Source: Candidatus Bathyarchaeia archaeon
GTDB taxonomy: Archaea > Thermoproteota > Bathyarchaeia > 40CM-2-53-6
Reading direction: 5' to 3'
Assembly (NCBI GenBank): GCA_049517415.1
Contig: JBEKSC010000002.1
Coordinates: forward strand, 32,001-96,000
Length of the DNA stretch: 64,000 nt
The notes under the pieces are model-generated. The model did no database searches and was not told the origin of the DNA. It saw only the letters and a list, made by a program, of their open reading frames with translations. How positions within the stretch are numbered: the stretch's first letter is position 1; every line of letters starts with the position of its first letter. Positions 482 through 18,079 of the stretch are shown piece after piece. Made by a program: the position numbers and the translations under genes.

Positions 482-586
482 TGGCGCCCTTCGCCAGGAG
501 AAGGCTAGGCTGCTCCTTTGGGCGGGATTCGAACCCGCGTCGACGACGTGACAGGCCGTCATCCTAGACCACTGAACGACCAGGGC
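482..586 (-). tRNA. tRNA-Asp(GTC) with 29-nt intron at 68/69 (490..518); CCA encoded
   Basis: Cloverleaf GCCCTGG...ACGGC CT GTC AC GTCGT...GCGGG TTCGAAT CCCGC; acceptor 3' strand CCAGGGC is restored only after removing a BHB intron. Confidence 0.93.
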
Positions 587-614
587 ATCGGCACCCCAGA
601 AATCGCTGTGCCAG

Positions 615-620
615 CTTAAA
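615..620 (-). promoter_or_regulatory. Putative TATA box of tRNA-Asp
   Basis: TTTAAG on minus strand about 30 nt upstream of the tRNA 5' end. Confidence 0.5.
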
Positions 621-717
621 GCCTTGCTACAACATATACGCGGAACAGAAAAGACGCCAAGCATATCTTACGGTGGTCTTCGCTAGGATGTGACGGCATA
701 CGGACTCATATTTGGTT

Positions 718-819
718 ATGCTGTTGGTCATAGTCGCGGTGCTGATCCTTGTACCGGTCATCGTAGCCTACGCACATGTTCGTCAACGCCTGCTCGAAAG
801 AATCTTCAAGAACAGATGA
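718..819 (+). CDS. Possible small single-TM membrane peptide
   Basis: MLLVIVAVLILVPVIVAYAHVRQRLLERIFKNR: hydrophobic helix followed by basic tail; fills an intergenic gap. Confidence 0.4.
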   Translation: MLLVIVAVLILVPVIVAYAHVRQRLLERIFKNR

Positions 820-821
820 TT

Positions 822-2543
822 TCACGGGCGGGTTGTAAGGACCTTCGCGAAATCGTTCTCGAAATATTCATCTTTGTTCCTGGTTAGGGAACCTCTCTGG
901 TCGGTTCCGAGTTTCCGCAGGTCTGTCCTCTTGATCTTCCCGCTCACGGTCTTAGGCAGTTCGCTTACGAATTGTATGATCCGCGGCCGTTTGTAGGGCG
1001 CCATGTGCTGCCTGGTGAAGTTGAATATCTCCAAGGCCAGTTCTCTAGAAGCAATCAAGTTTGGTTTTAGCATCACGTACGCTTTTGGAACGAACCCTCT
1101 CAACGGATCTGGACTTGCAACGACAGCAACCTCCGTAATGGAAGGGTGGACCAGAAGTTCGCTCTCCACTTCGAAGGCACTGATCCTATAGTCTGAGCTC
1201 TTGAACACGTCGTCGGCTCGACCTATGAACCAGAAGTAGCCTTCGGCGTCCCGTGACGCCAAGTCGCCAGTGAGGTACCAATCGCCGACGAAGACCTCCC
1301 GATTCTTCTCGCGCGGGTCGATATAGCCATTCATCACTCCGACCGGCCTTCGCGGCTTAACCCGAATAGCAAGAATACCATCGGTCTTTGGTGCAACGGG
1401 ATTATATTCATCGTCCAAGATTTCTACGTTAAACCCCGGAGCTACAACTCCCATCGAACCCAATTTGATCTTCATCCCTGGGAAGAAACCAACTGTTATG
1501 GTTGTCTCAGACTGTCCGAAGCCTTCTCGTATGGTAAGCCCAGTTGCGTCGTGCACTTTCTGGTTTATTTCTGGGTTCAATGGTTCGCCGGCGCTAATGA
1601 GTTCTCTGAGCGAGAAGTGGTAGTCCTTCAAGTTCTCCAAGAGTAGGAATCTCCATACGGTTGGGGGGGCGCAGAGGGTTCTCACGTCGTGGCTTTCAAT
1701 CACGCTTAGAACGCGCTTGGGGTCGAATTTTCCAGAGTAATTGTAGAGGAAACTTGTAGCTTCTGCGTTCCAGGCTCCAAAGATACTACTATACGCGTAC
1801 TTAGCCCAGCCAGGCGCACTGATGTTGTAATGTACATCTCCCCTTCTGGCTCCGATCCAGTACATGGTACTCAGGTGCCCAACCGGGTAGCTTCCGTGGG
1901 TTTGAAGAACAAGTTTGGGCTTCGCAGTCGTTCCCGATGTAAAGTAGATGAGGAGTTCGTCTTCGGGGCTAAATGTATCCTCGGTTCTAAAGTTTGCAGA
2001 CTGATCGTCTATCTCCGCATAATCTGTCCAACCATTCCAACTTCCTCCAACGCTAACCTTGGAGACAGATTCGGGAAGTGAAGCTGAATCGATTCTACTA
2101 GTCAGTTCAGCGCCGGTGAAGATGCACTTAGCCTTCCCCCTTCCAATTCTGTCTCGAATATCGTCGACCGTCAGTAGGGTGGAGGCAGGTATGATTACGC
2201 ATCCAGCTTTCATCGCCCCGAGGAAGACTTCGAACAATTCAACGGAACTAGGCATCATGAGCATGATTCGGTCCCTTCTCTTGAGCCCTAGGGTCATCAG
2301 GAAATTTGCTGCCTTGTTGGACCGTTCTTTCATCGCTTCAAAAGTGACCTTCGTCTCCGACCCTTTGTCGTCTACGTACATTAGAGCAGGGTTGGAACAT
2401 TGCCCCGCCAGTGTATCGAAGTAATCTAAGGCCCAGTTGAACTGATTCAGCTCTGGCCAGTCGAATCCAACCTTCGCTTCCTCGTAGTTGTGTGCGTTTA
2501 GGAGGAGATCTCGAGCTGCAGTGAATTCTTTTAGGCCTGTCAA
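822..2543 (-). CDS. AMP-forming short/medium-chain acyl-CoA synthetase
   Basis: YFTSGTTAKPK, EGFGQSET, TGDLA, GRADD, PKTVSGKIKR adenylate-forming motifs. Confidence 0.92.
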   Translation of the reverse strand: MTGLKEFTAARDLLLNAHNYEEAKVGFDWPELNQFNWALDYFDTLAGQCSNPALMYVDDKGSETKVTFEAMKERSNKAANFLMTLGLKRRDRIMLMMPSSVELFEVFLGAMKAGCVIIPASTLLTVDDIRDRIGRGKAKCIFTGAELTSRIDSASLPESVSKVSVGGSWNGWTDYAEIDDQSANFRTEDTFSPEDELLIYFTSGTTAKPKLVLQTHGSYPVGHLSTMYWIGARRGDVHYNISAPGWAKYAYSSIFGAWNAEATSFLYNYSGKFDPKRVLSVIESHDVRTLCAPPTVWRFLLLENLKDYHFSLRELISAGEPLNPEINQKVHDATGLTIREGFGQSETTITVGFFPGMKIKLGSMGVVAPGFNVEILDDEYNPVAPKTDGILAIRVKPRRPVGVMNGYIDPREKNREVFVGDWYLTGDLASRDAEGYFWFIGRADDVFKSSDYRISAFEVESELLVHPSITEVAVVASPDPLRGFVPKAYVMLKPNLIASRELALEIFNFTRQHMAPYKRPRIIQFVSELPKTVSGKIKRTDLRKLGTDQRGSLTRNKDEYFENDFAKVLTTRP

Positions 2544-2679
2544 ATTTGTCGTGCCCGAGTCGAATAGAGTTTCTTCTAAGGGTTGTTTTTGATTCCTCGC
2601 ATTAGCAAGAAGCTTGAGAAATCATTCATTGTCTCTAATCGTAAGTTGCTAAATATTGCAGCCGACATAGGCAAACAAA

Positions 2680-3165
2680 TTGGTTGAAGCTAGCTTGCCG
2701 AAGAAAACTTCGATCAGGAAGAGCAAACAGGCCACCGATTTCGCACTCGTGGACCATGCGGGGAGGTTGGTGAGGCTTCGTGATTTTCGCGGCAGGAAGG
2801 TTGTTCTCTTCTTCTATGTTCACGATGATACGCCAGGGTGTACGAAGGAAGCGTGCAACTTCCGGGACGGCTATGGACGCTTGAAAGCGAGGGATGTAGT
2901 GTTGCTAGGCATCAGCCCGGACCCGATAGAATCACACAACAATTTCGCGGACAAATACAACCTTCCGTATCCTCTGCTCGTTGACGCGAAGGCGGAGGTC
3001 GCAAAGAGGTTCGGCGTTTGGGGTAAGAAGAACATGTATGGCAGAACATACTTTGGAGTAATTCGCTGCACCTTCATCATCGACGAGACGGGTACAGTCG
3101 TGAAGGAATACAGGCGTGTGAAGGTGGATGGACACTTGGACCAAATTCTCAAAGACTTGGGATGA
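2680..3165 (+). CDS. bcp: Peroxiredoxin, BCP/PrxQ family
   Basis: DDTPGCTKEACNFRD active-site motif. Confidence 0.92.
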   Translation: MVEASLPKKTSIRKSKQATDFALVDHAGRLVRLRDFRGRKVVLFFYVHDDTPGCTKEACNFRDGYGRLKARDVVLLGISPDPIESHNNFADKYNLPYPLLVDAKAEVAKRFGVWGKKNMYGRTYFGVIRCTFIIDETGTVVKEYRRVKVDGHLDQILKDLG

Positions 3166-3665
3166 CTCTTAGGGCAACCAGCCTCAGCAAGGTGGATCCC
3201 ATGGTAAACTTGGACGTCGCGTATGTCCCAACCCCCAAGGACATCGTTCGAAGGATGCTTAGGCTGGCAAGCGTACGTCGCGGTGAAACCGTTTTCGACC
3301 TTGGAGCGGGAGACGGCCGAATCCTGATTGAGGCAGTGAGAGGGTTTGGGGCACAAGCCATAGGAGTAGAGGTAGACCCAGAACGACTAGTTCGTATGAA
3401 AGAACGATTAACGGCGACGGGCACAGAAGCCACGGTGATTCAAGGAGATTTCATGGATGCAAACGTCTCATTGGCCGACGTTGTTGCTATCTACCTTTCT
3501 GATTCGGTCAACGCTAAGCTAGAATCAAAACTGAGGAAAGAGCTCAAAACTGGGGCACGGGTTGTCTCCTTAGATTATACCCTTCCAGGCTGGGTGCCAG
3601 AGAAGGAGTTGACGGTCAAAAGCGGCGGTATTTCGCGTAAAATATACCTATATAGGGTCGCGTGA
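3162..3665 (+). CDS. Class I SAM-dependent methyltransferase (protein-lysine MTase-like)
   Basis: YVPTP, DLGAGDGRI, GVEVD motifs. Confidence 0.85.
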   Translation: MTLRATSLSKVDPMVNLDVAYVPTPKDIVRRMLRLASVRRGETVFDLGAGDGRILIEAVRGFGAQAIGVEVDPERLVRMKERLTATGTEATVIQGDFMDANVSLADVVAIYLSDSVNAKLESKLRKELKTGARVVSLDYTLPGWVPEKELTVKSGGISRKIYLYRVA

Positions 3666-3778
3666 AACGCGCGTGTACCATACCGTACAGGTATCTACAT
3701 AACTTACCCAGAGGGGGGCCGAAACTTGTAAATAAAGAAGCATGCTACGCTAGTATGTTAGCATGGGGGAGGTGAGAG

Positions 3779-3961
3779 ATGTTGTCTAAGTTCAAATTTC
3801 TCCTACCCGCAATAGTACTAATCATCGTAGTAGCGCTAATCCTGGCCTCAAGCAACGCTAGTTTCCTTACATTCTCGCACGCCTGGATCGCCAAGGCTCT
3901 ATTGGGTCAAGGTACTGGAGGCGGCGGTCACGGCATGGGTAGAATAATAGGGCATCATTAA
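3779..3961 (+). CDS. Small secreted or membrane peptide with Gly/His-rich tail
   Basis: Strong RBS GGAGGTGA; signal-peptide-like N-terminus; tail GQGTGGGGHGMGRIIGHH. Confidence 0.6.
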   Translation: MLSKFKFLLPAIVLIIVVALILASSNASFLTFSHAWIAKALLGQGTGGGGHGMGRIIGHH

Positions 3962-4050
3962 GGCCCTAGAGAGAGGCCTCTAGTTCATTCTCCTCCCCTT
4001 TTTAGTGTAAATTATAAAGTTATTATACTTGCGGCGCCATTTCCGCTTAA

Positions 4051-5226
4051 ATGCGAGCAAGGATGCTAGCGACTGAGAAGGTAGGGCTCCTCCAAAGGCA
4101 CAAAATTGTCACGGAGATCATGAAGCAACTCGACCCTACAAATATCAAGATCCTTTCCACGATGTGGGAAACTGGCCCACGGAACCTTCTCGAAGTTTCT
4201 AGAAAAACTGGTATACCATTTACCTCTGTGTATCATCGTGTGGGCAAGATTGAGGCAAAGTCAAAACGCCTCGCCACTGTGATTCCGCAGGTTTCCAAAC
4301 TTGGAATGGTAAGGATTGCTCTTTTCACCGCTGCTAGACCAGGCTCCGAAGAGAGCGTAACTACTGCGCTGAAGATACCCAACCTTTGGCGTTCCGTGAA
4401 CCGTTGCGAAGGCGCCTTCACACACGTGTCAATTCATGTCGTCCCTGTACAATTCATGAAACATTTCAGGACATACCTGAAACGACTTTCCGAATCAGGT
4501 TTGATTAAACAGTCGAAAATGTTCCTTACAGGAGAATACATTCCTAACTTCCCAGCTTTCAAGTACTACGACCCGTCCTCTAATCAATGGACATTTGACT
4601 GGGAGCGCTGGTTGAACGCGCTCAAACGGGACCCCACCAAGACGATCGAAGACCCGGAAAGTTATGCTATGCTTGCAGACGAGAAAGACCTGCTAATTAT
4701 CAAGGAACTTGAGAAGAATGCGCGACAGAGCTTCGCGGAGATTGCGCCGCTCATGGGAATATCTTTGCAAGGCGTCAAGTACCATTACGACAAGAAACTG
4801 GTTCCATCTGAAATTGTGAAGTATGTTGGTTACGATGTCTGGCCGTACCCCGAAGAAGTGTCGGCTTATCATGAGATCTTCCTCAAGTTCACTAGCACAA
4901 TAGAGATGAACAGGTTCTATTCCTTAGTCCGTGAATTGTTCTTTGTACTTGGCGTCTCAAAAGTACTTCACGAGAACTCATTGATCGTGCGAACCTACAC
5001 GCTACAAAACCAGGTTTGGAGCATGTTCTCTTTCTTCTCACAAATGGCGAAGGAAGGGATAATCGAATCATATTCTTCTGTTAGGCAAGATTTCAGCGGC
5101 AGAGAGACACAATCAATATCATTTGAGCTCTTCGACAGCGAGAAAGGATGGACTTTCGATTTAGATAACTGCCTGTCAGATCTAGCGAAACTAACTCAAC
5201 TCGTCCCAGCCGTTCAAAAGGTCTAA
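4051..5226 (+). CDS. Tandem wHTH Lrp/AsnC-like transcriptional regulator
   Basis: Two HTH repeats (LDPTNIKIL...SVYHRV; DEKDLLIIKELEKNARQSFAEIA...VKYHY). Confidence 0.8.
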   Translation: MRARMLATEKVGLLQRHKIVTEIMKQLDPTNIKILSTMWETGPRNLLEVSRKTGIPFTSVYHRVGKIEAKSKRLATVIPQVSKLGMVRIALFTAARPGSEESVTTALKIPNLWRSVNRCEGAFTHVSIHVVPVQFMKHFRTYLKRLSESGLIKQSKMFLTGEYIPNFPAFKYYDPSSNQWTFDWERWLNALKRDPTKTIEDPESYAMLADEKDLLIIKELEKNARQSFAEIAPLMGISLQGVKYHYDKKLVPSEIVKYVGYDVWPYPEEVSAYHEIFLKFTSTIEMNRFYSLVRELFFVLGVSKVLHENSLIVRTYTLQNQVWSMFSFFSQMAKEGIIESYSSVRQDFSGRETQSISFELFDSEKGWTFDLDNCLSDLAKLTQLVPAVQKV

Positions 5227-5229
5227 TGC

Positions 5230-5296
5230 TGGTCCCGCGGACCGGAGTTTCGTAGAGTTTAACATCGTTTCAGTCGCTCTAAGCCTAGTAGGCTGA
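5230..5296 (-). repeat. Degenerate partial duplicate of the tRNA-Tyr 3' end plus intron fragments
   Basis: 5230..5255 matches 5341..5366 at 24/26; 5282..5296 matches 5438..5452 at 14/15. Confidence 0.75.
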
Positions 5297-5340
5297 ACTC
5301 CAAATCGCTTCGGACCAAGACCTAGTGTAAATGACTATTA

Positions 5341-5542
5341 TGGTCCCGCGGGCCGGAGTTTCATAGGGGTTTAGGCCCTATTTTGAATTCGCCGAGCCAG
5401 CAAGGGGCTCTCCAGCGACACTCCGGTGTCCGTTGTTAGCCCAGTAGGCTGACATGGGTACGCCTTGGGCGCACACCTACAGCGTCTCCGTCGCTCCGAA
5501 TAAGAGAGACTCGGAAGCTCTACCAGGCTGAGCTACCGCGGG
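5341..5542 (-). tRNA. tRNA-Tyr(GTA) with four introns: 30/31 (5484..5511), 37/38 (5428..5476), 53/54 (5388..5411), 59/60 (5358..5381)
   Basis: Spliced product CCCGCGG TA GCTC AGCCTGGTA GAGC T TCCGG CT GTA GA CCGGA GTGTC GCTGG TTCAAAT CCGGC CCGCGGG A CCA; archaeal Tyr identity C1-G72 and A73; each intron forms a BHB. Confidence 0.92.
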
Positions 5543-5677
5543 ACTGATTCAAAACCTTCGCTCTGTAGCCTATAAGGTTTCATGAACCATACGCCGAACC
5601 ACCCGTCTTAGTGGTCCGAAAATACTCGCCCGGATTAAATCCCTGGAGGCATTCTCCTCCGCGTTAGGTTAGTTAGG

Positions 5678-6085
5678 ATGATATTCAAGCGATCTTTCCG
5701 TGTTCACTGGGTTGACACAGACACTGCAGGCGTCATGCACTTTAGCAACTTCTTCCGTTACTTCGAAGCTTGCGAAGAAGAATTCTATCGTTCCCTCTCT
5801 CTGCCGCTGACTGAGATCCACGATAGATTTGGTGTATTATTACCCCGCGTCGAGGCCCACTGTCAATACAAAGCCGCGTGCAGATTCGATGAGCTGATCG
5901 ATGTTACGTTGAAAATTCGCGAGGTCCAGAAGAAGGTCATCATCTACGATTTCCAAGTTATGCGTCAATCAGATGGAAAACTGGCGGCGGAAGGCTTCGT
6001 GAAATGCATTGCTGTAGATTCAGAATGGAAAGCCGTCTCCTTACCCGGTGAAGTCTCAAGAACAATTCGTAATAGCATACTCTAA
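5678..6085 (+). CDS. Acyl-CoA thioesterase, YbgC/4HBT hot-dog family
   Basis: RVHWVDTDTAGVMHFSNFFRYFE motif. Confidence 0.9.
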   Translation: MIFKRSFRVHWVDTDTAGVMHFSNFFRYFEACEEEFYRSLSLPLTEIHDRFGVLLPRVEAHCQYKAACRFDELIDVTLKIREVQKKVIIYDFQVMRQSDGKLAAEGFVKCIAVDSEWKAVSLPGEVSRTIRNSIL

Positions 6086-6128
6086 AGACTAGATCGTGGC
6101 TGAAACTATACAACGTAAGGGTTAGAAA

Positions 6129-6794
6129 CTATCGCTGCGACCGTCCACACTTCTCGCAGAAAATTAGATCCTTGGCATTCTTCTTGCCGCAGAATTTGCA
6201 TTTCCATCGGTCAGTTTGAGCTGAGATTGCGTCATGCTTTTTTCCGCCCCTGATTCCGAGCCAGCATAGGATGATTCCTATCAACAGGAACTCGTAGCCG
6301 GCGAACTCAATAATTGGATTCAGGAGCGTTACATTCTCGACGGTGTTTAAGCTAAAGATTACGACTCGGCGAGCCGTGTCCTCGTTGTCGAAGACGAAGT
6401 AATAAGTGCTGCTAGTTGTGGGTATGAAGGTGAAGTTGGAGGATATGACCGTCGGCCGAACGAGGATGATTGCGCTGGGCTTTCCTGCTCGCCATAGGGA
6501 GAAGTTCCCCTGATCCATCACGTAGAATGCTACCTCATGCCCATCGGAGACCTCCAATGCCCCTTCCACCTGGGTACCCCCTCTTAGGTCGGCCGAGAGT
6601 GAGGTGTAGTTTGTGGCTGGCACTGCGATGAGTGTCGGTGGTAGGATTGGGAGCAGAGTCTGAGCGTGCGATGCTAAACCGAAGGTCTGTGCAATTGGGC
6701 TGAGAAACAGTGGGCCCTGCTCAAGCGTGAACACTCCCGCTAGGAGTAGGAGCACGCCGATTGTCAAAACCTTTCTTCGCATCATCCTCACCAT
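6129..6794 (-). CDS. Membrane protein with extracellular beta domain and C-terminal zinc ribbon
   Basis: N- and C-terminal TM helices, YYFVFDN, WKCKFCG...FCEKCG. Confidence 0.7.
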   Translation of the reverse strand: MVRMMRRKVLTIGVLLLLAGVFTLEQGPLFLSPIAQTFGLASHAQTLLPILPPTLIAVPATNYTSLSADLRGGTQVEGALEVSDGHEVAFYVMDQGNFSLWRAGKPSAIILVRPTVISSNFTFIPTTSSTYYFVFDNEDTARRVVIFSLNTVENVTLLNPIIEFAGYEFLLIGIILCWLGIRGGKKHDAISAQTDRWKCKFCGKKNAKDLIFCEKCGRSQR

Positions 6795-6834
6795 TATTCA
6801 GCTAGTTTAGTTGTTCCATCGCTCCTCGACAGGG

Positions 6835-6949
6835 TGGCGGGCCCGCGGGGATTCGAACCCCGGATCCCAGGCTTTCACCGCTTCCGCCCCGAAGGCTTAC
6901 ACGACTCTTACGCATCTCTGTGTCTTAATCCTGGCTCGACTACGGGCCC
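6835..6949 (-). tRNA. tRNA-Arg(TCG) with two introns: 29/30 (6897..6917) and 37/38 (6874..6888)
   Basis: GGGCCCG acceptor; spliced anticodon arm CAGGC CT TCG GA GCCTG; T arm CGGGG TTCGAAT CCCCG; GCCA end. Confidence 0.9.
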
Positions 6950-7153
6950 TTGTTGCCGGCAGCCATAGACGAAGATTGGCGTATATGGTTAGCGAAACGC
7001 CCGTGGACCGAGCACGGGAAGCTTAGATTGCGGTCCCGGTAACATCGTATTGAAGACGATACCCCCCTCTGATATCCCTTCATGGAGAAAAAGGAATACT
7101 GTTAGGTACCATACGTCTATGCGTCGAACATGTGGTGAAAACAACTGCCCATC

Positions 7154-7579
7154 TTGTCGGGTGAGGAAATTGAAAGCCGCGTGCGAAACGGTTCGCTTGC
7201 CCTCACGCCTTTCGAACGGGTCTGCCTGAATGGAGGCGGTTACGACTTGCGCCTGGGAATGGAAGTGATCATTCCACCCGGAGAAAATCGCTTGGTAGCA
7301 ACCCTTGAGAGAGTTGAGTTGGGAGATGATATAGCTGGGACATTGCATCTTCGCTCCTCCCTTGCACGCAAGGGAATAATCGCCAGCCTAGCGTTGGTAG
7401 ACCCAGGCTTTCACGGGCAACTAACGATTTCTCTCTTCAACGGAGGAGAAGAATTATTCAAAATGAGTCGGAATGGCAAGTTCGTGCAACTCGTGCTACA
7501 TGAGCTTAGCAGCAAGACGAATTTTATGTACAGTGGGAAGTACCAAGATAGCCAAGGAATTGTAGATAGCCGCCCCTAG
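7154..7579 (+). CDS. dcd: dCTP deaminase / dUTPase family
   Basis: GYDLRLG, RSSLARKG, VDPGFHGQLT, YSGKYQ. Confidence 0.88.
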   Translation: MSGEEIESRVRNGSLALTPFERVCLNGGGYDLRLGMEVIIPPGENRLVATLERVELGDDIAGTLHLRSSLARKGIIASLALVDPGFHGQLTISLFNGGEELFKMSRNGKFVQLVLHELSSKTNFMYSGKYQDSQGIVDSRP

Positions 7580-7681
7580 GCACCCCACTCTTTGTGTCAA
7601 TACATGTCGAAAGTATTATTACCGGTGTGCATGAGCATGTGAATATCCCTACTTGTCAAATCGACTACAGAAGGCGGCATC

Positions 7682-8431
7682 TTGAAAGCAGGTTCACGTA
7701 TATCCGACCTAAAGTACAAGCTCATGACCATAGAGCTCCTCAACTTAGCGAAAAACTACTACACATACAGAGAACTCGCACAAATCATCGGACTCCCTGA
7801 GACCGTTCTAAGCAGATACGTAAAGGGCCACGTGCTACCGACGATAGATCGAGCGCAGAACATCAACAGAACCCTACAGAAAATAATGCGTCTCGAAGGG
7901 GAGATTCAGCAAAGAATCCGTTTCGACGAATCTGGATACTTCGACAACACTAAACTCATCTCAGACACACTGCTCCTCGAACGTGCAGTTCAACATGCCG
8001 TAAACGCATTCGCTGGCATGCGCATTACAAAGATCCTTGCGGCAGCCGTTGACGGTGTACCGTTGGCGGCGCTTCTCGCACACAGGCTTGGTGTTGGCCT
8101 CATAATCGCAAAGAAAACTAGGGAAGTGGGAGTACGAGAGTTCATTGAAGAAGTCTACATCCCCAACAGGACTGCAATAATGGTCAGTCTATATGTCCCA
8201 CGAGACGCGCTAAGAAAAGGGGATTGCGTACTCATAGTGGACGATGTCATCGATAGCGGCGAAACACAGATTGCATTAACCCGAATCGTTCAGAAAGCCA
8301 AAGCAGAAGTCACAGGCATGTATGCTCTCATCAGTACGGGTTCAGAGTGGAAGAGCAGGATCGAAGCAGTCACTCATTGCCCAGTAGAAATCGTTTTGCA
8401 AGTGGGCAAGAAACCACTACAAGAAGTCTGA
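7682..8431 (+). CDS. HTH-fused purine phosphoribosyltransferase-family protein (PurR-like regulator)
   Basis: N-terminal HTH (TYRELA...LSRYVKGHVLP); PRPP motif VLIVDDVIDSGET. Confidence 0.85.
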   Translation: MKAGSRISDLKYKLMTIELLNLAKNYYTYRELAQIIGLPETVLSRYVKGHVLPTIDRAQNINRTLQKIMRLEGEIQQRIRFDESGYFDNTKLISDTLLLERAVQHAVNAFAGMRITKILAAAVDGVPLAALLAHRLGVGLIIAKKTREVGVREFIEEVYIPNRTAIMVSLYVPRDALRKGDCVLIVDDVIDSGETQIALTRIVQKAKAEVTGMYALISTGSEWKSRIEAVTHCPVEIVLQVGKKPLQEV

Positions 8432-8472
8432 ACAAAGTTCGGACTTCGCTCGGCAACCAGCCCAGTTACGAC

Positions 8473-9582: not shown

Positions 9583-9772
9583 CTGTTGACGAGAATGGTC
9601 GTGCGCGTTGAATTAGCTTTCCCATGCGAATCAATACCATGACTCTTTGCGAGGTTCAATTTCAAAGAAGTTCTGTTTGGGGATGCTTACGGAGTGAATT
9701 ATCGCTCGCTGGTGCTCTTGGTCGCAAAAGCATTAAGGGATGATGTACCAGCGGTGAGTCGAGTGCCCTTTC

Positions 9773-10336
9773 ATGGAGAACAACCTCGGCTCAACACCTC
9801 AAGCTCCCGCGCAGGTCCAAGAAAAACCGCCGTTTACCCCTTGGAACGCGGTGTCCGGTCCGCGTTTGGTATACATACCCTATAAATCTGAACTCATGGA
9901 GTTAAGGGACCGAGGATTTGGCGACCTCCGGAAGGACAAGCTTGTCCTTTCTCCGTACGAATCATTCTATCTTCTAGAGAAACAGAAGATTAGAGTGTTT
10001 GCCAAGGATGCAGGCCGGGAGTTGGAGCTTCGAGACTTAGTCCAGAAGTATTCAGTTGACAAACCCGAGATCTGGATCAAGTACTTGGTGTACCGTGACC
10101 TACGGGAGCGTGGGTACATAGTCCGTGAGTCCACTAGGGCCTTCGATTTTGACATTTACGGAAAAGGGCCGCTGAGGCGTTTAATCTCAATCGTATACGA
10201 AGGCGGCGAAGCGAGCCTTCGTAAATTAAGTAAACTGCTTCAATATTCTGACAAAGAGAAGAAGGAGTTGATACTAGCCGTCGTTGATAGGCGGACCGAT
10301 ATTGTGTACTATACGTTGAGTTCGTTGAATGTCTAA
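9773..10336 (+). CDS. endA: tRNA splicing endonuclease subunit (probably the structural beta subunit)
   Basis: LSPYESFYLLE, YLVYRDLRERGYIV, ELILAVVD; no His after DIYGKGP. Confidence 0.8.
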   Translation: MENNLGSTPQAPAQVQEKPPFTPWNAVSGPRLVYIPYKSELMELRDRGFGDLRKDKLVLSPYESFYLLEKQKIRVFAKDAGRELELRDLVQKYSVDKPEIWIKYLVYRDLRERGYIVRESTRAFDFDIYGKGPLRRLISIVYEGGEASLRKLSKLLQYSDKEKKELILAVVDRRTDIVYYTLSSLNV

Positions 10337-10352
10337 CAACAGTTATTGTAGC

Positions 10353-10913
10353 CTACTGGGGCTGCCGCGCGTTGCAGTGGGGACAAATAAGTTCCCCACC
10401 TTGTAGCTGAGCACCGCACTGGACGCAGTACTTGACCTGAGCTACTCCTGTCCCGGGCTGGAGGATTGGTTGTGGTATGACAGCTTCGGCGCCACGATGG
10501 CGGATGGTTCCTCCTAGGGCTCCGCCGAAGGCACCAGCAACCAGATTTGTTAGCAAGATGAAAATGACTGCTTCCTGCAACTGCGATAACGGGGGGGTCG
10601 GCGTGTTTGGGATCGGTATTACTTCGAAGATTAGGAAGATTTGGGAGACGCCAAGGAAGAATGGTGCGTTGAGAATTCCTGCAAGGGCACCAGCCGCTGC
10701 TGCCTGACCAACCCTGCCGTAAAGAACGTATGCAGCGACAATTCCTCCAACGACTGCCCCTATCACTGTCGAGAATTGCAAATCAGTGATGCTTAAAACC
10801 GCGGATAGAAATCCGCCTACAATCAGGCCGCTCAACGTTGCAGCCCAGAGGTCTTTGCTTTTGGTGGACAAAGTAGTTCGAATTGCCAGAATTCCCGCTT
10901 CGCTATAAAGCAT
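10353..10913 (-). CDS. Gly-rich membrane protein with C-terminal zinc ribbon
   Basis: About 4 TM helices; YCVQCG...CPHCN. Confidence 0.7.
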   Translation of the reverse strand: MLYSEAGILAIRTTLSTKSKDLWAATLSGLIVGGFLSAVLSITDLQFSTVIGAVVGGIVAAYVLYGRVGQAAAAGALAGILNAPFFLGVSQIFLIFEVIPIPNTPTPPLSQLQEAVIFILLTNLVAGAFGGALGGTIRHRGAEAVIPQPILQPGTGVAQVKYCVQCGAQLQGGELICPHCNARQPQ

Positions 10914-10992
10914 TGTACCTTCGATGTCTCGAATTTAACTCACAACATTATAGGAGAGGCTCTCGCTACTGCGAAGGCTAGCGTGTTGAAAC

Positions 10993-12306
10993 TTGACCGC
11001 AAAAGCGTTCACGCTCCCGCGGGGCATTAGAGATACGGACTCAGTGGAGATGAATCAAAGGCTTTGGCTCTATGGTAAGATACGTGATGTGGTCCGCAGA
11101 TACGGGTTCCAAATGGTTGAACCTGCAACGATTGAGAACCTCAATACTCTTGAAGCCAAGAGTGGCCCAGCGATACGGAATGAGATTTACTGGTTCAAGG
11201 ATAAGGGCGGGAGAAGCCTTGGCCTTCGCTTCGACCTCACCGTCGGCATAGCAAGGATGGTCGCGAACCGATCCGACCTACCCGAGCCTATGAAATTCGC
11301 CACAATTGGCGGGAACTGGCGCTATGATGAGCCACAATACGGGAGATATCGCTACTTCACCCAATGGGACGTAGAAATCTTCGGCTCAGAAAGTCCTTTG
11401 GCAGATGCAGAGGTGATCTGTGTCGGGGCAGACATCCTAAGCAGCGTCGGGTTGAAAGACTGCATTATCAGAATTAGCAACAGGAAACTCACAGAAGCTT
11501 ACCTCAAGCAATTGGGCATCAAATCGGGCAAGAGACTGGATCAGTGCCTTAGGATCATCGATAAGCTCAGAAAGGCTAACCGCGAGCAACTGGAAAAAGA
11601 GTTCCAAGCTGCTAAGATCGGGAAAGAAGCAGTAAAGGAAATTTTCTCGTTCATCTCCCTGAACGGGTCTCCAGCAAGTGTCCTTGCGAAGCTGAACAGT
11701 TTCACTTTCACTGAAGAGAATGCCAAGAAAGGTTTGGAGGAGTTGACGAATCTAGCAGACGCCCTAGCATCATTAGGGCGTTTAGGGATCTGTGTATATG
11801 ACCTTAGCATAGTGCGCGGAATTGGATACTACGACGGAATTGTCTTCGAAGCTTTCGATAAGGGTGGGGAAGGCGTTGGCTCAATCTTCGGTGGCGGGAG
11901 ATACGACCGGTTGTGCAGAATATATGGAAAGCGTGACATACCAGCAACCGGCGTGGCGGGTGGGATCGAGCGCCTAATGATTTCACTGGAACGAGACAAC
12001 CTGTTTCCGAAGGGCCCTATGGGTGCCAAGGTCTTCATCGCTACGGTCCAAGAAGGCCTCAAGCACGAAGCAACGAAGCTGGCACAAAAGCTTCGAGATA
12101 ACGGAATCGCAACCGAGGTTGACTTGAAGACACGCCCTTTGGGCAAGCAGTTAGAATACGCGAACGCAGCTAAGATCCCATTCTTGATAGTGCTCGGCCC
12201 ACAGGAACTTCAAACCCAAACCGTCAAAGTTAAGGAAATGGCCACTCGAAACGAGATGCCCGTACCCCTCGACGCTCTTGTGGAAAAGCTCCAGTCTTTG
12301 AATTAG
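10993..12306 (+). CDS. hisS: Histidine--tRNA ligase
   Basis: PRGIRD, LRFDLT, RYDEPQYGRYR, RGIGYYDG, GGGRYD, GIERL; anticodon-binding domain. Confidence 0.97.
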   Translation: MTAKAFTLPRGIRDTDSVEMNQRLWLYGKIRDVVRRYGFQMVEPATIENLNTLEAKSGPAIRNEIYWFKDKGGRSLGLRFDLTVGIARMVANRSDLPEPMKFATIGGNWRYDEPQYGRYRYFTQWDVEIFGSESPLADAEVICVGADILSSVGLKDCIIRISNRKLTEAYLKQLGIKSGKRLDQCLRIIDKLRKANREQLEKEFQAAKIGKEAVKEIFSFISLNGSPASVLAKLNSFTFTEENAKKGLEELTNLADALASLGRLGICVYDLSIVRGIGYYDGIVFEAFDKGGEGVGSIFGGGRYDRLCRIYGKRDIPATGVAGGIERLMISLERDNLFPKGPMGAKVFIATVQEGLKHEATKLAQKLRDNGIATEVDLKTRPLGKQLEYANAAKIPFLIVLGPQELQTQTVKVKEMATRNEMPVPLDALVEKLQSLN

Positions 12307-12731
12307 TCGCCGCCGATGAAGACTTCTTTCTCATTGGACTGCAAGATTGCAGTTAGAGTTGCCCGTTCACCGACTAAATCTCGCATTGAAACAACTCCAA
12401 TTGGTTTCCCCTGCTCATCGACCACTACGACGTGTCTTATCCTATTCTTGTTCATCGCTTTGGCCGCCTCAGCCACGTCCGAGCTGGCTTTTGCGGTAAT
12501 AACATGTTTCGTACTCACTTCGTCCACTGCTGCGTTCAGCGTTTTTCCCGATGCTATGGCTTTCATTATGTCCCTTTCCGAGATTACGCCGACGAGTTTT
12601 GTTCCTTCTTTTGCGTCGCATATGACTAGGAGGCCCATGTTGTTGTCCACCATGAGTTTTGCTGCGTCGAGCATTGTCGTGCCCGAGGGAATCGCGACTA
12701 TAGGCCGTTGCAGAATATGCTCAAGCTTCAT
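12303..12731 (-). CDS. CBS-domain protein
   Basis: GVISERDI, IRHVVVVD...GVVSMRDL. Confidence 0.9.
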   Translation of the reverse strand: MKLEHILQRPIVAIPSGTTMLDAAKLMVDNNMGLLVICDAKEGTKLVGVISERDIMKAIASGKTLNAAVDEVSTKHVITAKASSDVAEAAKAMNKNRIRHVVVVDEQGKPIGVVSMRDLVGERATLTAILQSNEKEVFIGGD

Positions 12732-13903
12732 GCTTGCTGATCCTCCTCTCTACCAAGCCTGGAACCCATCGGAGTATAAGGTAAACCTGTTTTCCCGATG
12801 TAGAGAGCTTTAGGTCGAATCAGCCTGTTAGCTTTCAAGTATTCAATTGAGTGCGCCGTCCAACCTGCAATTCTGCTCATCGCGAAGATCGGCGTGAACA
12901 GGTCAGTAGGGATTCCCAATATGTGGAAGACAATACCCGAGTATGAGTCAACGTTCGGAAAAATCGGTAAACCTGCAAGGTGTTTAAGGGCGCTGGCCTC
13001 AATCGCGCTGGCGGTATCAAATAACTTAGTCTGATTCCGCTTTACTGCAAGTTCCCCACCGAGTTTCTTGAGAATAACGTACCTGGGATCCCAAGTCTTG
13101 TACACTCGATGGCCAAAGCCCATGATCTTTTTCTTTTGAGCCAGAGCTTCAACAACATAGCCTTCAGCTCTGGAAGGGTCACCAACCTCGATGACCGTTT
13201 GGAGAGCAACCTCATTTGCCCCGCCGTGAAGAGGCCCCCTCAATGTCGCAATACCAGAGGTAATTATGGAGTACATGTCAGCCAAGGTTGAAGCCGTCAC
13301 CGTGCATGAGAAGGTTGATGCGTTCATTTCATGTTCCGCGTGGAGGATCAGAGCGACGTCCATGACATGGGCATCATATGGATCAGGCTCTTTCCCCGTC
13401 AGCATGTATAGGAAGTCTGCAGCGTGGCTCAAACCCTGCTTGGGTAAAACAGGGTCCTTTCGGTTTCTGATTCGGTCAAATGCTGCAATGATCGCTGGCG
13501 TTCTCGCTAAAATTCTGAGCGCCTTGTCGACTCGACCCTCGATGCTATCCGTCGTTGGTTGGGGGTCGTACAAGCCGAGGGCTGAAACTGATGTTCGCAA
13601 AACGTCCATCGGATCGCCTTTGATGGGAAGTGACAGAATTAATTGTGATATCTCAGGTTCAAGGGATCGATAAGATTCGATTCGCCCATTGAATTCTGCC
13701 AACTGGGATTTTGTTGGAAGCCAGCCGTATATTAGAAGGTAGGCAGTTTCCTCGAAGGTAGCATGCTCAGCCAAGTCTTCGATGCTGTAGCCTCTGTAGA
13801 AGAGTTTGCTGGCCTCACCATCAATGAAGCAGATCTTACTCTCCTTCACGTACACGTTGTCGAGCCCTTTGTGGATGACGACGGGTTCTCTTACGAGAGA
13901 CAA
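12728..13903 (-). CDS. gltA: Citrate (or 2-methylcitrate) synthase
   Basis: HAEHEMNAST, GPLHGGA, MGFGHRVYK, PNVD. Confidence 0.93.
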   Translation of the reverse strand: MSLVREPVVIHKGLDNVYVKESKICFIDGEASKLFYRGYSIEDLAEHATFEETAYLLIYGWLPTKSQLAEFNGRIESYRSLEPEISQLILSLPIKGDPMDVLRTSVSALGLYDPQPTTDSIEGRVDKALRILARTPAIIAAFDRIRNRKDPVLPKQGLSHAADFLYMLTGKEPDPYDAHVMDVALILHAEHEMNASTFSCTVTASTLADMYSIITSGIATLRGPLHGGANEVALQTVIEVGDPSRAEGYVVEALAQKKKIMGFGHRVYKTWDPRYVILKKLGGELAVKRNQTKLFDTASAIEASALKHLAGLPIFPNVDSYSGIVFHILGIPTDLFTPIFAMSRIAGWTAHSIEYLKANRLIRPKALYIGKTGLPYTPMGSRLGREEDQQA

Positions 13904-13993
13904 TCTGACCTGAACGGGCTCCCACGAGGTTCTTTATACAAATTGCCCAGTACAGACAAGGGAGCCTTGAGGAGCCTTTGAGTGATTCAATGG

Positions 13994-14728
13994 TTAGACG
14001 ATGCTGATTGTGCCGTCTCCAGTGAACCAAAAGGGCGGACTGTAGACCGAATCAAGAGGATCGCTCGATTCCAACCTGCTGAAGGGCGAGACGGTATTGT
14101 ATACGGAAGCGAATACGGAATTGCCGCTTGCTAGGTAGTAGAACAGAGCGCCAGTCAAGTCGTCGATTTGTCCGAAAGCGAGGGTGATGCGTCCATTGCA
14201 AGAGATTACAGCCTTAACGCCTGCATTAATGAAATAGCTGGCAATGAGGACTGAATTTGATGACATCAACACTACCAATTTGACGTTCTCTAGAGAATCC
14301 GCCTGCAAATGTTCGCTCAGGAATTGAATACTAATGCCGAGGATTCCAGCATTCTGATTAACTCGCCCCTGCTCGAAGTCATCCGCGTATTTCCGTTCGG
14401 CAGCTAGATTGACGGTCTGTCCGACGTACCAGTAAGTTCTGTGTGCGAATGAATACGTATTCGTGCGCCAGACGATCACATCGTAGTTGTTCAGTTGAGT
14501 CGTGAGGAAGTCAAGTGTCACAGCAGAGCTGGAAAGGAAACTCACTTGATACCCAACGTGAGCTAAATCGTATTTGAGCGTCGTGGCATAGTAGCCCATA
14601 GGGGCTAGTGCATCGAGCGAAGAGAGGATCACGGCCTTGCGCTCTGGTTGGGCCTGAACCGGCGCGATCGCTACCAACGCCAATGAAACTAGGACCAACA
14701 TAAACGCAGCATGTAACCTTCGTTGCAA
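13994..14728 (-). CDS. Secreted hypothetical protein
   Basis: Long ORF; signal peptide MQRRLHAAFMLVLVSLALVAIAPVQA from TTG 14728 (ORF track extends to 14854). Confidence 0.65.
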   Translation of the reverse strand: MQRRLHAAFMLVLVSLALVAIAPVQAQPERKAVILSSLDALAPMGYYATTLKYDLAHVGYQVSFLSSSAVTLDFLTTQLNNYDVIVWRTNTYSFAHRTYWYVGQTVNLAAERKYADDFEQGRVNQNAGILGISIQFLSEHLQADSLENVKLVVLMSSNSVLIASYFINAGVKAVISCNGRITLAFGQIDDLTGALFYYLASGNSVFASVYNTVSPFSRLESSDPLDSVYSPPFWFTGDGTISIV

Positions 14729-15253
14729 ATTCCTACAGCTACGCGGCCACGAAGGATTCTGTGAGATAAAAGGTGCCTTAGCCAAGTGACAAATGCAAGT
14801 AAAAGACATGCCATAATTCTTTCCGGAGTTACTTCTAGAATGCAAGAACGCCATGGACGCGAGTACGACAATGCCTTCAGTTTGCCATCCGCTTTCCAGT
14901 CATTTCTCATTGCAAGGCCGCCATCGCGGCCAGAACGGTTTCTTGCCATTATCGTCTCTTGGGATAAATGTGAAATTCACTTACTGAAACGAATAAGCAA
15001 TAGCCGGATCACGACTAGGATGCTTCGCGAAAAATCGTGTCCCATGCGAGGTTGAATGTTCCAAAACACCAGTAAGCTGCTCCGTAGGCGTTGCTTAAGT
15101 AGGCTCCTCAAAAAGTGCAAATCAAACCGCCGAGGCATTTCCATCTCCATAGAATGGAGACATGGTGTTTCGGATTATGATTAATGGGTGCCCCTCCATT
15201 AGACTGAAACATTAATATACGTAAAATGGTACACCAGTGTTTCGGCGCCCGAC

Positions 15254-15733
15254 ATGTCCCAAGCTTTCACAACGAAACCCCTTACCACAGACAACGAGAT
15301 ACTTTGGGCAACCTTCACGCATGACCAAAGCCTCTTCAACGCCCCTCGACTCACAATAGTGCTACCAAACCACTTAACAGACCTAAGCCTGAACCTCGAA
15401 AAGCTCTCAAAGAAAATAACCGGCCGCATACCACTAATCGTCGGGGACTTCCTCGACAACCTGCTTTCTGTTTCATCGGCTCCAGCAGGGCTCTACTCCT
15501 TCCTTTGCAAACTCTTCACGGGAATTGGAACAAACGGGCAGACCGGTTTCTTCCTAGCGACAGAGGATATGCACGACTCAAAGAAAACTGCGATTCTCAA
15601 GAGATTCGCTGACGTTGTCATCGAATACCGGGCAATACAAGAAATAGCCAACTACCGGCTTGAGGCTCGAATCCTCGACCAAGCACAAAACCATTACAGT
15701 ACATGGGACAGCAGCGAAAACTCGGATTCATAA
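15254..15733 (+). CDS. RAD55/KaiC-like ATPase C-terminal portion lacking Walker A (possibly truncated)
   Basis: DLSLNL...IVGDFLDNL...EDMHD...FADVVIEY pattern of RecA-superfamily DUF835/RAD55-like domains. Confidence 0.5.
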   Translation: MSQAFTTKPLTTDNEILWATFTHDQSLFNAPRLTIVLPNHLTDLSLNLEKLSKKITGRIPLIVGDFLDNLLSVSSAPAGLYSFLCKLFTGIGTNGQTGFFLATEDMHDSKKTAILKRFADVVIEYRAIQEIANYRLEARILDQAQNHYSTWDSSENSDS

Positions 15734-15866
15734 TATGAAGACCAACCTTTCCTAAGCAACCAGCTCTCTAAGATCGGGCGCCAGCCAAACCTCCTCCGAA
15801 AGCCTATCCCGGCTTGTTCTGAAGCTCCAAGCGCATCCTGAAGCTTCGAGAGAACTTTTCGGCCAC

Positions 15867-17603
15867 TCACGCGGTTCTTATCGAGGCTGCTTCCTCCAAC
15901 CCTAGTTCCTTAGTCGAAATCTCTCGCATCTTGAATTTTTGGACCTTCCCCGTAACCGTCATGGGAAACGTTTCTGTGAACTTGAAATATGCTGGAACCT
16001 TGAAGTAGGCAATTCTAGTTTTGCAGAATTCCTGCAACTCCTCGGCAGTGGCTGTCTCGCCCGGTTTCAACTTAACCCAAGCCATAACCTCTTCTCCGTA
16101 CTTCCGACTGGGAATGCCGATTACCTGCACGTCAGAAATCTTAGGGTGTGTGTAGAGGAAATCTTCCACCTCCCTGGGGAAAACCTTCTCTCCACCCCGG
16201 CTAATCATGTCCTTCGTGCGCCCAACAATGTTCACATAACCATTCGGTTGCATGAGTGCGAGGTCCCCCGTATGCATCCACCCCTCCCGGTCAATGGCTT
16301 CCCGCGTGGCTTCCGGATTGCTCCAGTACTTCAGCATCACGAGGTAACCACGTACGCAAAGCTCGCCAGCTGTCCCACGTGGGACGGTACGGTTGGTTAG
16401 TGGTTCAATGACCCTTGCTTCGACATGTGGAAGTGGGCGGCCGACCGTTGATACTCGAAGTTCCAAGGGATCGTCGAGCCGGGTTTGAAATGAAACGGGG
16501 GATGTTTCCGTCATTCCATAACAAATTGTGATCTCACGTATGCCCATGTCCGAGATGACTTTCTTCATGACCTCGACGGGGCACGGCGAACCTGCCATGA
16601 CACCAGTTCTTAGGCTTGACAAGTCGAATTGGTTGAAGTTGGGATCGTTCAGTTCGGCTATGAACATTGTTGGTACGCCGTGAAGCGCCGTACACCTTTC
16701 TTCCTCCACGGTCCGGAGCACGGTTTCTGAGCTGAAGGCATCTGACGGAAGAACCATGGTGGCACCGTGGGTTACGCACGCGAGGTTTCCTAACACCATG
16801 CCAAAACAATGGTAGAAGGGGACTGGGATGCATAGTTTGTCGTGGTGGGTAAATTTCATTTCTTCTCCGACGAAGAAACCGTTATTCAAAATGCCGTAAT
16901 GGGTTAGGGTTGCGCCTTTAGGAAAACCGGTAGTTCCCGAAGTATATTGAATGTTAATGGCATCATAACACTCAAGCATCCTTTCTCTCTCCTTGAGTTC
17001 CCGTGGGGAGGAGTTCATTGTTCCGATTTCTAGAAAACGCTCCCAGGAAAGCATTGAAGGCGGAGAAGGCTCCCCCCCATCGCTGAGTGTTACGATTCGA
17101 CGTAGAGCAGGGACTCGAGCAGCCTTGATTTCTTGGCCAGCTCCTATCTTCGGGAGCTTTCTGATTTCAGGTGCCAGTTCTGTTATCATCCAATGGTAGT
17201 CCGAGGTTTTGAATTGTTTGGCCGTTATGAGGAGGCTTATCCCGGATTGGTTCAGCGCATACTCCAACTCTTGAACTCGGTATGCGGGATTGACGTTGAC
17301 TAGGATCGCCCCAACCTTTGCAGTAGCGAACTGGGTCAGAACCCATTCCGCATTATTTGGCGACCATATACCAACTCGGTCTCCCTTCTGTACGCCGAAA
17401 CCAAGAAGCGCTACGGCGAACTCATCCACCCGCTCCTTCAGTTGGGCGTAGGTCAATCTCAGGCCCTGATGCCTAGAAACGAGCGCTTCTGCATCCTCAT
17501 GCCCCGAAACGACCTCGTCGAAGAGACGCCCAACGGTCTTTTCGATGAGAGGTTTCTCCGTTGGGCCGTGTTCGTAGCTTGGCTCGGGCCCCTTTTCCTT
17601 CAT
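15867..17603 (-). CDS. AMP-binding fatty-acyl-CoA synthetase (ACSF2/YngI-like)
   Basis: [34 protein letters not shown]. Confidence 0.92.
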
Positions 17604-17678
17604 TTGCGGTCGCGTGCCGTTTGGGGCTTGGTGTGAAAGAATAATTCTTGGTACCTTTACTAATTATGGTAAAATTCA

Positions 17679-17827
17679 TGGCGGGCCCGCGGGGATTTGA
17701 ACCCCGGACCTCTGTACCAGTGCTGGGCTGGTTCTACAGCTTTTTCCGGTGTTCCTTAGGGGGTTCGGCAACAAATTCCGCTTTATGTGCGGAGCCTGCC
17801 GCTCTATCCAACCTGAGCTACGGGCCC
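17679..17827 (-). tRNA. tRNA-Arg(CCT) with three introns: 30/31 (17764..17795), 37/38 (17742..17756), 45/46 (17710..17733); C at position 33
   Basis: Spliced GGGCCCG TA GCTC AGGTTGGATA GAGC G GCAGC CC CCT AA GCTGT AGGTC CGGGG TTCAAAT CCCCG CGGGCCC G CCA. Confidence 0.82.
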
Positions 17828-17883
17828 AAGGGTGGAACGCGGCGGGTAAAGTAAAAGGATTAAGGCGCAGCGATTCGAAGAAG

Positions 17884-17889
17884 TTTAAA
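17884..17889 (+). promoter_or_regulatory. Putative TATA box of tRNA-Leu in a divergent tRNA promoter region
   Basis: Purine-rich BRE-like sequence then TTTAAA about 29 nt upstream of 17918. Confidence 0.55.
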
Positions 17890-17917
17890 GAACCAATCGG
17901 ATTTCCTTTGTCTCTGT

Positions 17918-18079
17918 GCGGGGATTCCCGAGCCAGGTCAAAGGGGCAGGACCACCCGGCGCGGTGGGGCCACACTTAAGATCAGAACTTGCCTTGGGAG
18001 ATGAGGAGACATCCTGTGGCGTAGAGCCAGCGGATGGGCGCGTAAGCCTTCAGGGGTTCGAATCCCCTTCCCCGCACCA
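17918..18079 (+). tRNA. tRNA-Leu(TAA) with three introns: 30/31 (17951..17973), 37/38 (17981..18010), variable-arm loop (18025..18045)
   Basis: Spliced GCGGGGA TT CCCGAGCCAGGTCAAAGGG G CAGGA CT TAA GA TCCTG TGGCGTAGGCCTTC AGGGG TTCGAAT CCCCT TCCCCGC A CCA. Confidence 0.92.

Follow-up and report, generated by a model that had tools for sequence, protein, structure and literature searches.

A 64,000-nt stretch of DNA from a Bathyarchaeia archaeon (assembly GCA_049517415.1, contig JBEKSC010000002.1, positions 32,001 to 96,000), referred to here as the window, contains between positions 482 and 18079 five tRNA genes in all, every one of them interrupted. They hold 13 introns, four at the canonical site (37/38) and nine at non-canonical sites. 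To judge from the sequences compared here, the five loci are very probably the genome's only functional genes for their tRNAs, which would be spliced from intron-bearing precursor tRNAs (pre-tRNAs). Interruption is a feature of the tRNA set as a whole in this Bathyarchaeia genus and, less markedly, in its order; the intron content is still shifting between close relatives and the intron load equals the heaviest described so far in archaea. The mechanism is a known one, found here in a lineage where the searched literature has not described it.

Interrupted tRNA genes of the window

The genes were located with our own finder, which traces a cloverleaf along the DNA and is allowed to skip candidate introns that fit the geometry of the bulge-helix-bulge (BHB) motif, consisting of an outer helix, a 4-bp central helix and two 3-nt bulges, with cleavage following the second nucleotide of each bulge. 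A strict hBHBh' filter recovered too few introns and relaxed rules were therefore adopted in the finder. Since the relaxed finder returns spurious solutions of low score when run on random anchors, a score threshold was introduced together with a reversed-genome control, in which none of the 1092 acceptor/CCA anchors scored 31 or more (maximum 30). Each motif was scored in the better of two contexts, either genomic or with the other introns removed.

After intron removal the cloverleaves of the five window genes score 33-35 of 35, and CCA is encoded in each of them (Table 1). The finder recovered exactly the five genes, the 13 introns, the nine non-canonical sites and all of the positions that had been proposed in an initial annotation made from the letters of the DNA. 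The single intron of tRNA-Asp is framed by a strict BHB motif with outer, central and inner helices of 2, 4 and 5 bp, and in tRNA-Tyr the central helix is complete (4/4) in each of the four introns.

As the initial annotation had anticipated, standard tRNA finders miss most of these genes. ARAGORN in default mode reports one of the five, tRNA-Asp at 512-587 (-), with a mispaired acceptor stem, and the Rfam tRNA model matches two at the gathering score and three at E<=10; the acceptor stem is again mispaired in the Rfam match to tRNA-Asp and the other matches contain long unaligned inserts. Over the whole genome, 17 matches lie above the Rfam cut-off, compared with 46 genes in our own set (see below), and ARAGORN with introns allowed makes 30 calls, only four of which have the correct anticodon when compared with that set. 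The ARAGORN calls at contig 10:40509, 17:32499 ('Arg cct'), 57, 58:114 and 4:117730 were judged on inspection to be false or to be hybrids of real halves. Routine annotation yields a badly incomplete or wrong tRNA set, and inferences about genome quality and codon usage are distorted as a result.

Table 1. Coordinates of the interrupted tRNA genes, the putative splicing enzymes and the LAGLIDADG-associated elements. Positions without a contig or locus label refer to the window.
Feature	Location	Strand	Details
tRNA-Asp(GTC)	485-586 (CCA 482-484)	-	one intron
Asp exon 1	519-586	-	
Asp intron	490-518	-	68/69, 29 nt
Asp exon 2	485-489	-	
tRNA-Tyr(GTA)	5344-5542 (CCA 5341-5343)	-	four introns
Tyr intron	5484-5511	-	30/31, 28 nt
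Tyr intron	5428-5476	-	37/38, 49 nt
Tyr intron	5388-5411	-	53/54, 24 nt
Tyr intron	5358-5381	-	59/60, 24 nt
Degenerate second copy of tRNA-Tyr 3' part	5230-5302	-	~40 nt downstream of Tyr gene
tRNA-Arg(TCG)	6838-6949 (CCA 6835-6837)	-	two introns
Arg-TCG intron	6897-6917	-	29/30, 21 nt
Arg-TCG intron	6874-6888	-	37/38, 15 nt
tRNA-Arg(CCT)	17682-17827 (CCA 17679-17681)	-	three introns; position 33 = C
Arg-CCT intron	17764-17795	-	30/31, 32 nt
Arg-CCT intron	17742-17756	-	37/38, 15 nt, weak motif
Arg-CCT intron	17710-17733	-	45/46, 24 nt
tRNA-Leu(TAA)	17918-18076 (CCA 18077-18079)	+	three introns
Leu-TAA intron	17951-17973	+	30/31, 23 nt
Leu-TAA intron	17981-18010	+	37/38, 30 nt
Leu-TAA intron	18025-18045	+	variable arm, 21 nt
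EndA paralogue, beta-like	9773-10336	+	PF01974 56.5 bits, PF02778 38.8 bits; N and C domains
EndA paralogue, alpha	contig 10 (L063:1213-1785)		best solved relative 3p1z_B, E 7.5e-39
RtcB	contig 5:94022-95332		PF01139, 572.9 bits
LAGLIDADG homing-endonuclease-like gene	contig 9:47297-48241	-	starts 8 nt past tRNA-His
LAGLIDADG homing-endonuclease-like gene	contig 6:55886-56725	+	overlaps tRNA-Val(GAC) 3' end
Tyr-linked LAGLIDADG gene of a relative	L050:1704-2516	-	

The genome-wide tRNA set and related genomes

The finder was run on the whole 2.65-Mb assembly (59 contigs; estimated to be 100% complete with a contamination of 6.86%) and loci with weak motifs were then curated. The resulting set comprises 46 genes with 44 anticodons, CAT being present three times and every other anticodon once, and covers the standard archaeal set. 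Arg-CCG is the sole intron-less gene. The remaining 45 carry 112 introns (2.43 per gene over the whole set), with one intron in nine genes, two in 17, three in eight, four in ten and five in tRNA-Trp. Canonical introns account for 28 and non-canonical introns for 84 of the total; the most frequent non-canonical sites are 30/31 (13 introns), 59/60 (nine) and 45/46 (seven), and the D-loop region contains 17 introns altogether. Intron lengths lie between 11 and 63 nt (median 22 nt). All 46 genes reach cloverleaf scores of 32-35 of 35; for Leu-TAG a solution other than the top-ranked one was selected by hand because its D arm resembles those of the other Leu genes. CCA is encoded in 45 genes, the exception being tRNA-His (contig 9:47177-47289, +). 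The five introns of tRNA-Trp(CCA) (contig 24:5195-5420, -) are located at 10/11, 28/29, 37/38, 45/46 and 59/60, with a canonical intron of 61 nt. About 800 nt to the left of the window, tRNA-Lys(TTT) (contig 2:31012-31198, -) has four introns in the D-loop and at 30/31, 37/38 and 43/44.

Neither split nor permuted tRNA genes were found, all 46 being collinear at single loci, and the introns form no sequence families: in an all-versus-all blastn comparison of the 112 introns the best score was 18.3 bits, within the 18.3-22.3 bits obtained in five shuffles. A sign of the Thermoproteales type of expansion, by transposition of introns, was not found in this comparison. The initial annotation had described the window introns as unrelated to each other, which thus extends to the entire set, and had suspected a lineage of extreme intron load; the genome-wide count bears this out, as does the recurrence of the architectures across the genus and order. 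The BHB-aware search of the genome and related assemblies that it had proposed was carried out with our finder, with the outcome that nearly all genes are interrupted and that their layouts are shared by the relatives.

The comparison set consisted of 22 relatives from the same genus, with some loci from other families of the same order. As many as 22 same-genus genomes, and the other families as well, share these tRNA architectures. The Asp 68/69 intron is kept in 23 of 23 same-genus genomes, in which the exons are invariant, the intron loop is variable and the inner helix shows paired changes. The exons of Arg-CCT are likewise invariant in all 12 aligned same-genus loci; its first (12-33 nt) and third (21-35 nt) introns vary in length and sequence and its 15-nt 37/38 insert is nearly conserved. 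The two-intron layout of Arg-TCG was found in 25 of 30 related loci, which represent every solvable one and include other families, with introns of 13-21 and 14-21 nt. The three-intron layout of Leu-TAA is present in ten of 12 related loci, the other two being without a solution. In the solved loci of both genes the exons stay constant and the introns differ in length and sequence.

tRNA-Tyr is the most informative of the five. It was solved in 20 of 24 loci, 12 of which have four introns and four of which lack the 53/54 intron; three have neither the 53/54 nor the 59/60 intron, so that the T arm is contiguous (the closest relative is among these), and one has a 57/58 intron instead. These absences sit precisely at the predicted junctions, which validates the junctions independently of the motif and shows that introns have recently been gained or lost. 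Among the Tyr introns the canonical one has a length of exactly 49 nt at each of the 18 same-genus loci that were solved and of 51 nt in two other families, and the other three vary in length; the canonical intron may therefore have a separate function.

A rough view of the distribution beyond the genus was obtained from matches to RF00005 at E 0.001 among the 30 best candidates per genome. The median number of matches rises from 12 in the family through 16 elsewhere in the order to 28 in other orders, which is a hint only, because just 30 candidates were scored per genome and completeness varies. On this measure the load would be highest in this family and would not characterise the class in general.

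Heavy interruption of tRNA genes is known from other lineages. For the Thermoproteales, the available text of PMC8450103 gives a mean of 0.84 introns per gene, with up to three in one gene, and a record of 1.54 per gene in Pyrobaculum calidifontis (71 introns in 46 genes). According to the same text, this group shares with the present genome short BHB introns at canonical and many non-canonical sites, several introns per gene, an alpha/beta splicing endonuclease (EndA) and genes that are missed by plain finders (PMC8450103). The Bathyarchaeia belong to a different class, however, and the present load of 2.43 per gene exceeds both that record and that mean, with up to five introns per gene and 11 genes with at least four; moreover, no intron families are present here, whereas about 28% of Thermoproteales introns fall into families that extend across different tRNAs, as far as the available part of a preprint goes. 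Closer in load are three Asgard families, for which the accessible portions of two preprints report 2.2 introns per gene, with as many as five in a single gene (bioRxiv 10.1101/2023.11.21.568159; bioRxiv 10.64898/2026.10.13.758758). On this material, the two lineages have in common some 2.2-2.4 inserts per gene, a maximum of five, interruption of 92-98% of genes, many positions in the D arm, a median length of 22-23 nt and mutually unrelated introns. The Bathyarchaeia differ in belonging to another phylum, within the TACK group, and Bathyarchaea are not mentioned in the part of the Asgard preprint available to us. Further differences are the CCA encoded in 45 of the 46 genes and the LAGLIDADG cassettes at tRNA ends (see below), whereas the same part of the Asgard preprint reports no enrichment of mobile elements, from a test of limited power. 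Several BHB-type introns at non-canonical positions also occur in nuclear tRNA genes of the red alga Cyanidioschyzon merolae (available text of PMC3728597), but this organism is a eukaryote with some permuted genes as well, unlike the collinear set described here.

A full-text literature search returned no paper tying Bathyarchaeia to heavy tRNA interruption. The novelty implied in the initial annotation is narrower than suggested, because equal loads have been published for some Asgard archaea. Bathyarchaeia rank among the most abundant uncultured archaeal groups. They represent a third, unrelated archaeal lineage in which nearly all tRNA genes are fragmented, which argues that such expansions arise repeatedly.

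Splicing enzymes, motif quality and alternative explanations

The genome encodes a crenarchaeal-type alpha/beta EndA together with RtcB, an RNA ligase for 2',3'-cyclic phosphate ends. Two EndA paralogues (PF01974/PF02778) are present. The alpha paralogue can be aligned along its entire length with the catalytic alpha subunit from the heterotetramer of Aeropyrum pernix (3p1z_B), retains the catalytic Tyr, His and Lys and has a lysine-rich loop that aligns to the crenarchaeal-specific loop. In the window paralogue the catalytic His is not aligned in comparisons with 1a79 and 5x89, and this beta-like protein would fit a structural beta subunit. The beta-like gene sits among the interrupted tRNA genes; the alpha gene is on another contig. 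In the mechanism that we envisage, each gene would be transcribed as a pre-tRNA with one to four short introns, a heterotetrameric (alpha-beta)2 EndA of the crenarchaeal type would cleave the BHB or relaxed-BHB motifs at the exon-intron boundaries and RtcB would ligate the exons. Some introns may be cleavable only once a neighbouring intron is gone, which would impose an order on splicing.

The quality of the motifs is uneven. Of the 13 window introns, eight have a complete central 4-bp helix, four have three of the four pairs and one (Arg-CCT 37/38) has two; genome-wide this helix is complete in 75 of 112 introns, with three pairs in 34 and two in three. Several motifs are complete only once a neighbouring intron is removed. 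The statement in the initial annotation that two 3-nt bulges in each case, once cut, give back a regular cloverleaf thus holds for the cloverleaves and not for every motif.

A number of observations weigh against the view that all of the inserts are introns spliced from functional pre-tRNAs. The strict hBHBh' motif, with both outer helices of at least 2 bp, is present in just four of the 13 window introns and in just 27 of 112 genome-wide, and the motif count is partly circular and provides no independent evidence, as the finder pre-filters by a relaxed BHB rule. The Arg-CCT 37/38 insert, with two of four central pairs (scores 5/2/2), is nearly conserved across the genus, unlike other introns. 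Fragments around five junctions did not fold more stably than shuffled sequences (z from -1.08 to +1.29), and just two of them took up the predicted bulge-helix arrangement in the minimum-energy fold. A few introns have boundaries that can slide by 1-3 nt, and Glu-TTC and Gly-CCC are readable with either three or four introns, which would give a total of 110 introns if three are assigned to each. Finally, the anticodon loop is unusual in both AGR-reading Arg tRNAs, Arg-CCT and Arg-TCT (contig 1:94777-94896), which carry C33 and not U33. All 12 same-genus genomes compared keep C33 in Arg-CCT; either tolerance of this base or C-to-U editing could be the reason.

These observations bear on three other explanations. 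If the inserts were damage, the loci would be tRNA pseudogenes in decay or relics of mobile elements that resemble tRNAs, with the working tRNAs encoded at other loci. True tRNA fragments do exist (5230-5302 in the window and contig 11:15907-15969, 7:37455-37479 and 2:122837-122900), and most of the genes are rejected or misread by standard finders. However, in a genome estimated to be complete, each anticodon of the window occurs once, solely as an interrupted gene; intron-less isoacceptor copies of the kind considered in the initial annotation are absent from the assembly, in which none of the five spliced window sequences has a contiguous copy. In addition, the inserts drift whereas the exons stay unchanged in as many as 23 genomes. 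We therefore regard decay as highly improbable. An even smaller probability, close to nil, is assigned to an assembly or binning artefact, in which a chimeric or incomplete bin would account for the inserts or for the missing intron-less copies: the 59 contigs and the contamination estimate leave some room for such errors, but identical gene structures are found in many independent assemblies, some of only 3-6 contigs.

A more serious reservation is that the genes are real but that some inserts with weak motifs are not classical EndA introns or have different boundaries. The candidates are the Arg-CCT 37/38 and 30/31 inserts and, in the genomic context, Tyr 53/54, and such inserts might depend on ordered splicing, a relaxed bulge-helix-loop mode or other handling. 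The 37 of 112 introns with fewer than four central pairs, the nearly conserved Arg-CCT 37/38 insert, the motifs that are full only after removal of a neighbour and the unexceptional stability of the fragment folds all speak for this. Against it, the alpha/beta type of EndA is reported to cut relaxed motifs (available text of PMC5829648), shifts of 1-2 nt in a boundary leave the mature product identical, and the cloverleaf forms only when every insert is removed. We consider this reading of the weak-motif inserts unlikely, although its chance is appreciable. Functional genes with introns that are spliced from the pre-tRNA remain the explanation that best accommodates the data.

LAGLIDADG genes and displaced tRNA 3' pieces

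LAGLIDADG genes occur inside archaeal rRNA introns. The two that we found in the present genome encode homing-endonuclease-like proteins, and both abut tRNA genes, those for His and Val-GAC. Beyond the His-linked gene lies a displaced 3' piece of tRNA-His containing a 59/60 intron, which the working His gene lacks, and on the far side of the Val-linked gene is a displaced copy of the T arm. Homologues are patchily distributed, being present in nine of 41 related genomes. A tRNA gene is located within ~340 nt at nine of 11 loci, the neighbours being six different tRNAs, among them His, Tyr, Glu, Phe and Trp, and tRNA-derived direct repeats flank the LAGLIDADG open reading frame (ORF) at seven of the 11.

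A similar arrangement may once have existed at the window tRNA-Tyr gene. The degenerate second copy of its 3' part comprises the tails of the 37/38 and 59/60 introns and the final exon, CCA included. In two relatives (L050 and L054) the arrangement is intact: a complete Tyr gene with three introns is followed by an antisense LAGLIDADG ORF of 270 amino acids (27.5 bits) and then by a displaced partial copy that bears the 53/54 and 59/60 introns. The copy in the window looks like the trace of a lost LAGLIDADG cassette.

As a lead, mobile cassettes appear to target the ends of tRNA genes here and to change their intron content. The function proposed in the initial annotation, by which introns would mask tRNA att sites from integrating elements, has a context in these cassettes and in the displaced 3' pieces at tRNA gene ends of this genome and its relatives. 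A more far-reaching proposal, which we put forward tentatively and consider doubtful as it stands, is that a family of free-standing LAGLIDADG cassettes inserts at tRNA 3' ends, brings its own 3' copy and thereby introduces, deletes or swaps introns, the extreme load being the outcome of an arms race. Introns would then split the target sites of endonucleases or of integration and could spread by co-conversion, as in the collaborative homing of phages; that cassettes might explain the load is what we infer from these arrangements. In the collaborative or trans homing of T4-like phages, as described in the available text of PMC2790892, the homing-endonuclease gene is also located beside and not within the intron-bearing gene and the neighbouring DNA is co-converted, whereas the present case concerns archaeal tRNA BHB introns and an endonuclease-like gene that is antisense and just past the tRNA 3' end. 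Because individual sites carry an intron in some and lack it in others of the more than 20 genomes of the genus, and because mobile endonuclease cassettes occur at tRNA ends, the arrival and persistence of BHB introns can be tested directly.

The cassette picture does not fit every fragment. The tRNA 3' fragment on contig 11 is 1.1 kb downstream of a CAT tRNA gene, and no LAGLIDADG gene lies between the two, the intervening ORF being protease-like by eye. Isolated 3' copies are found at this site, at the two other contig positions listed above and at contig 34:17338-17362 and 35:4186-4210; no 5' half was detected within 220-420 nt of them. They stem from the CAT tRNA, Leu-CAA, Leu-CAG and Pro-GGG and duplicate parts of complete genes, and could be insertion remnants or could lie on contigs of another strain. 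The 11-mer that ends the Leu genes has several extra copies in the genome.

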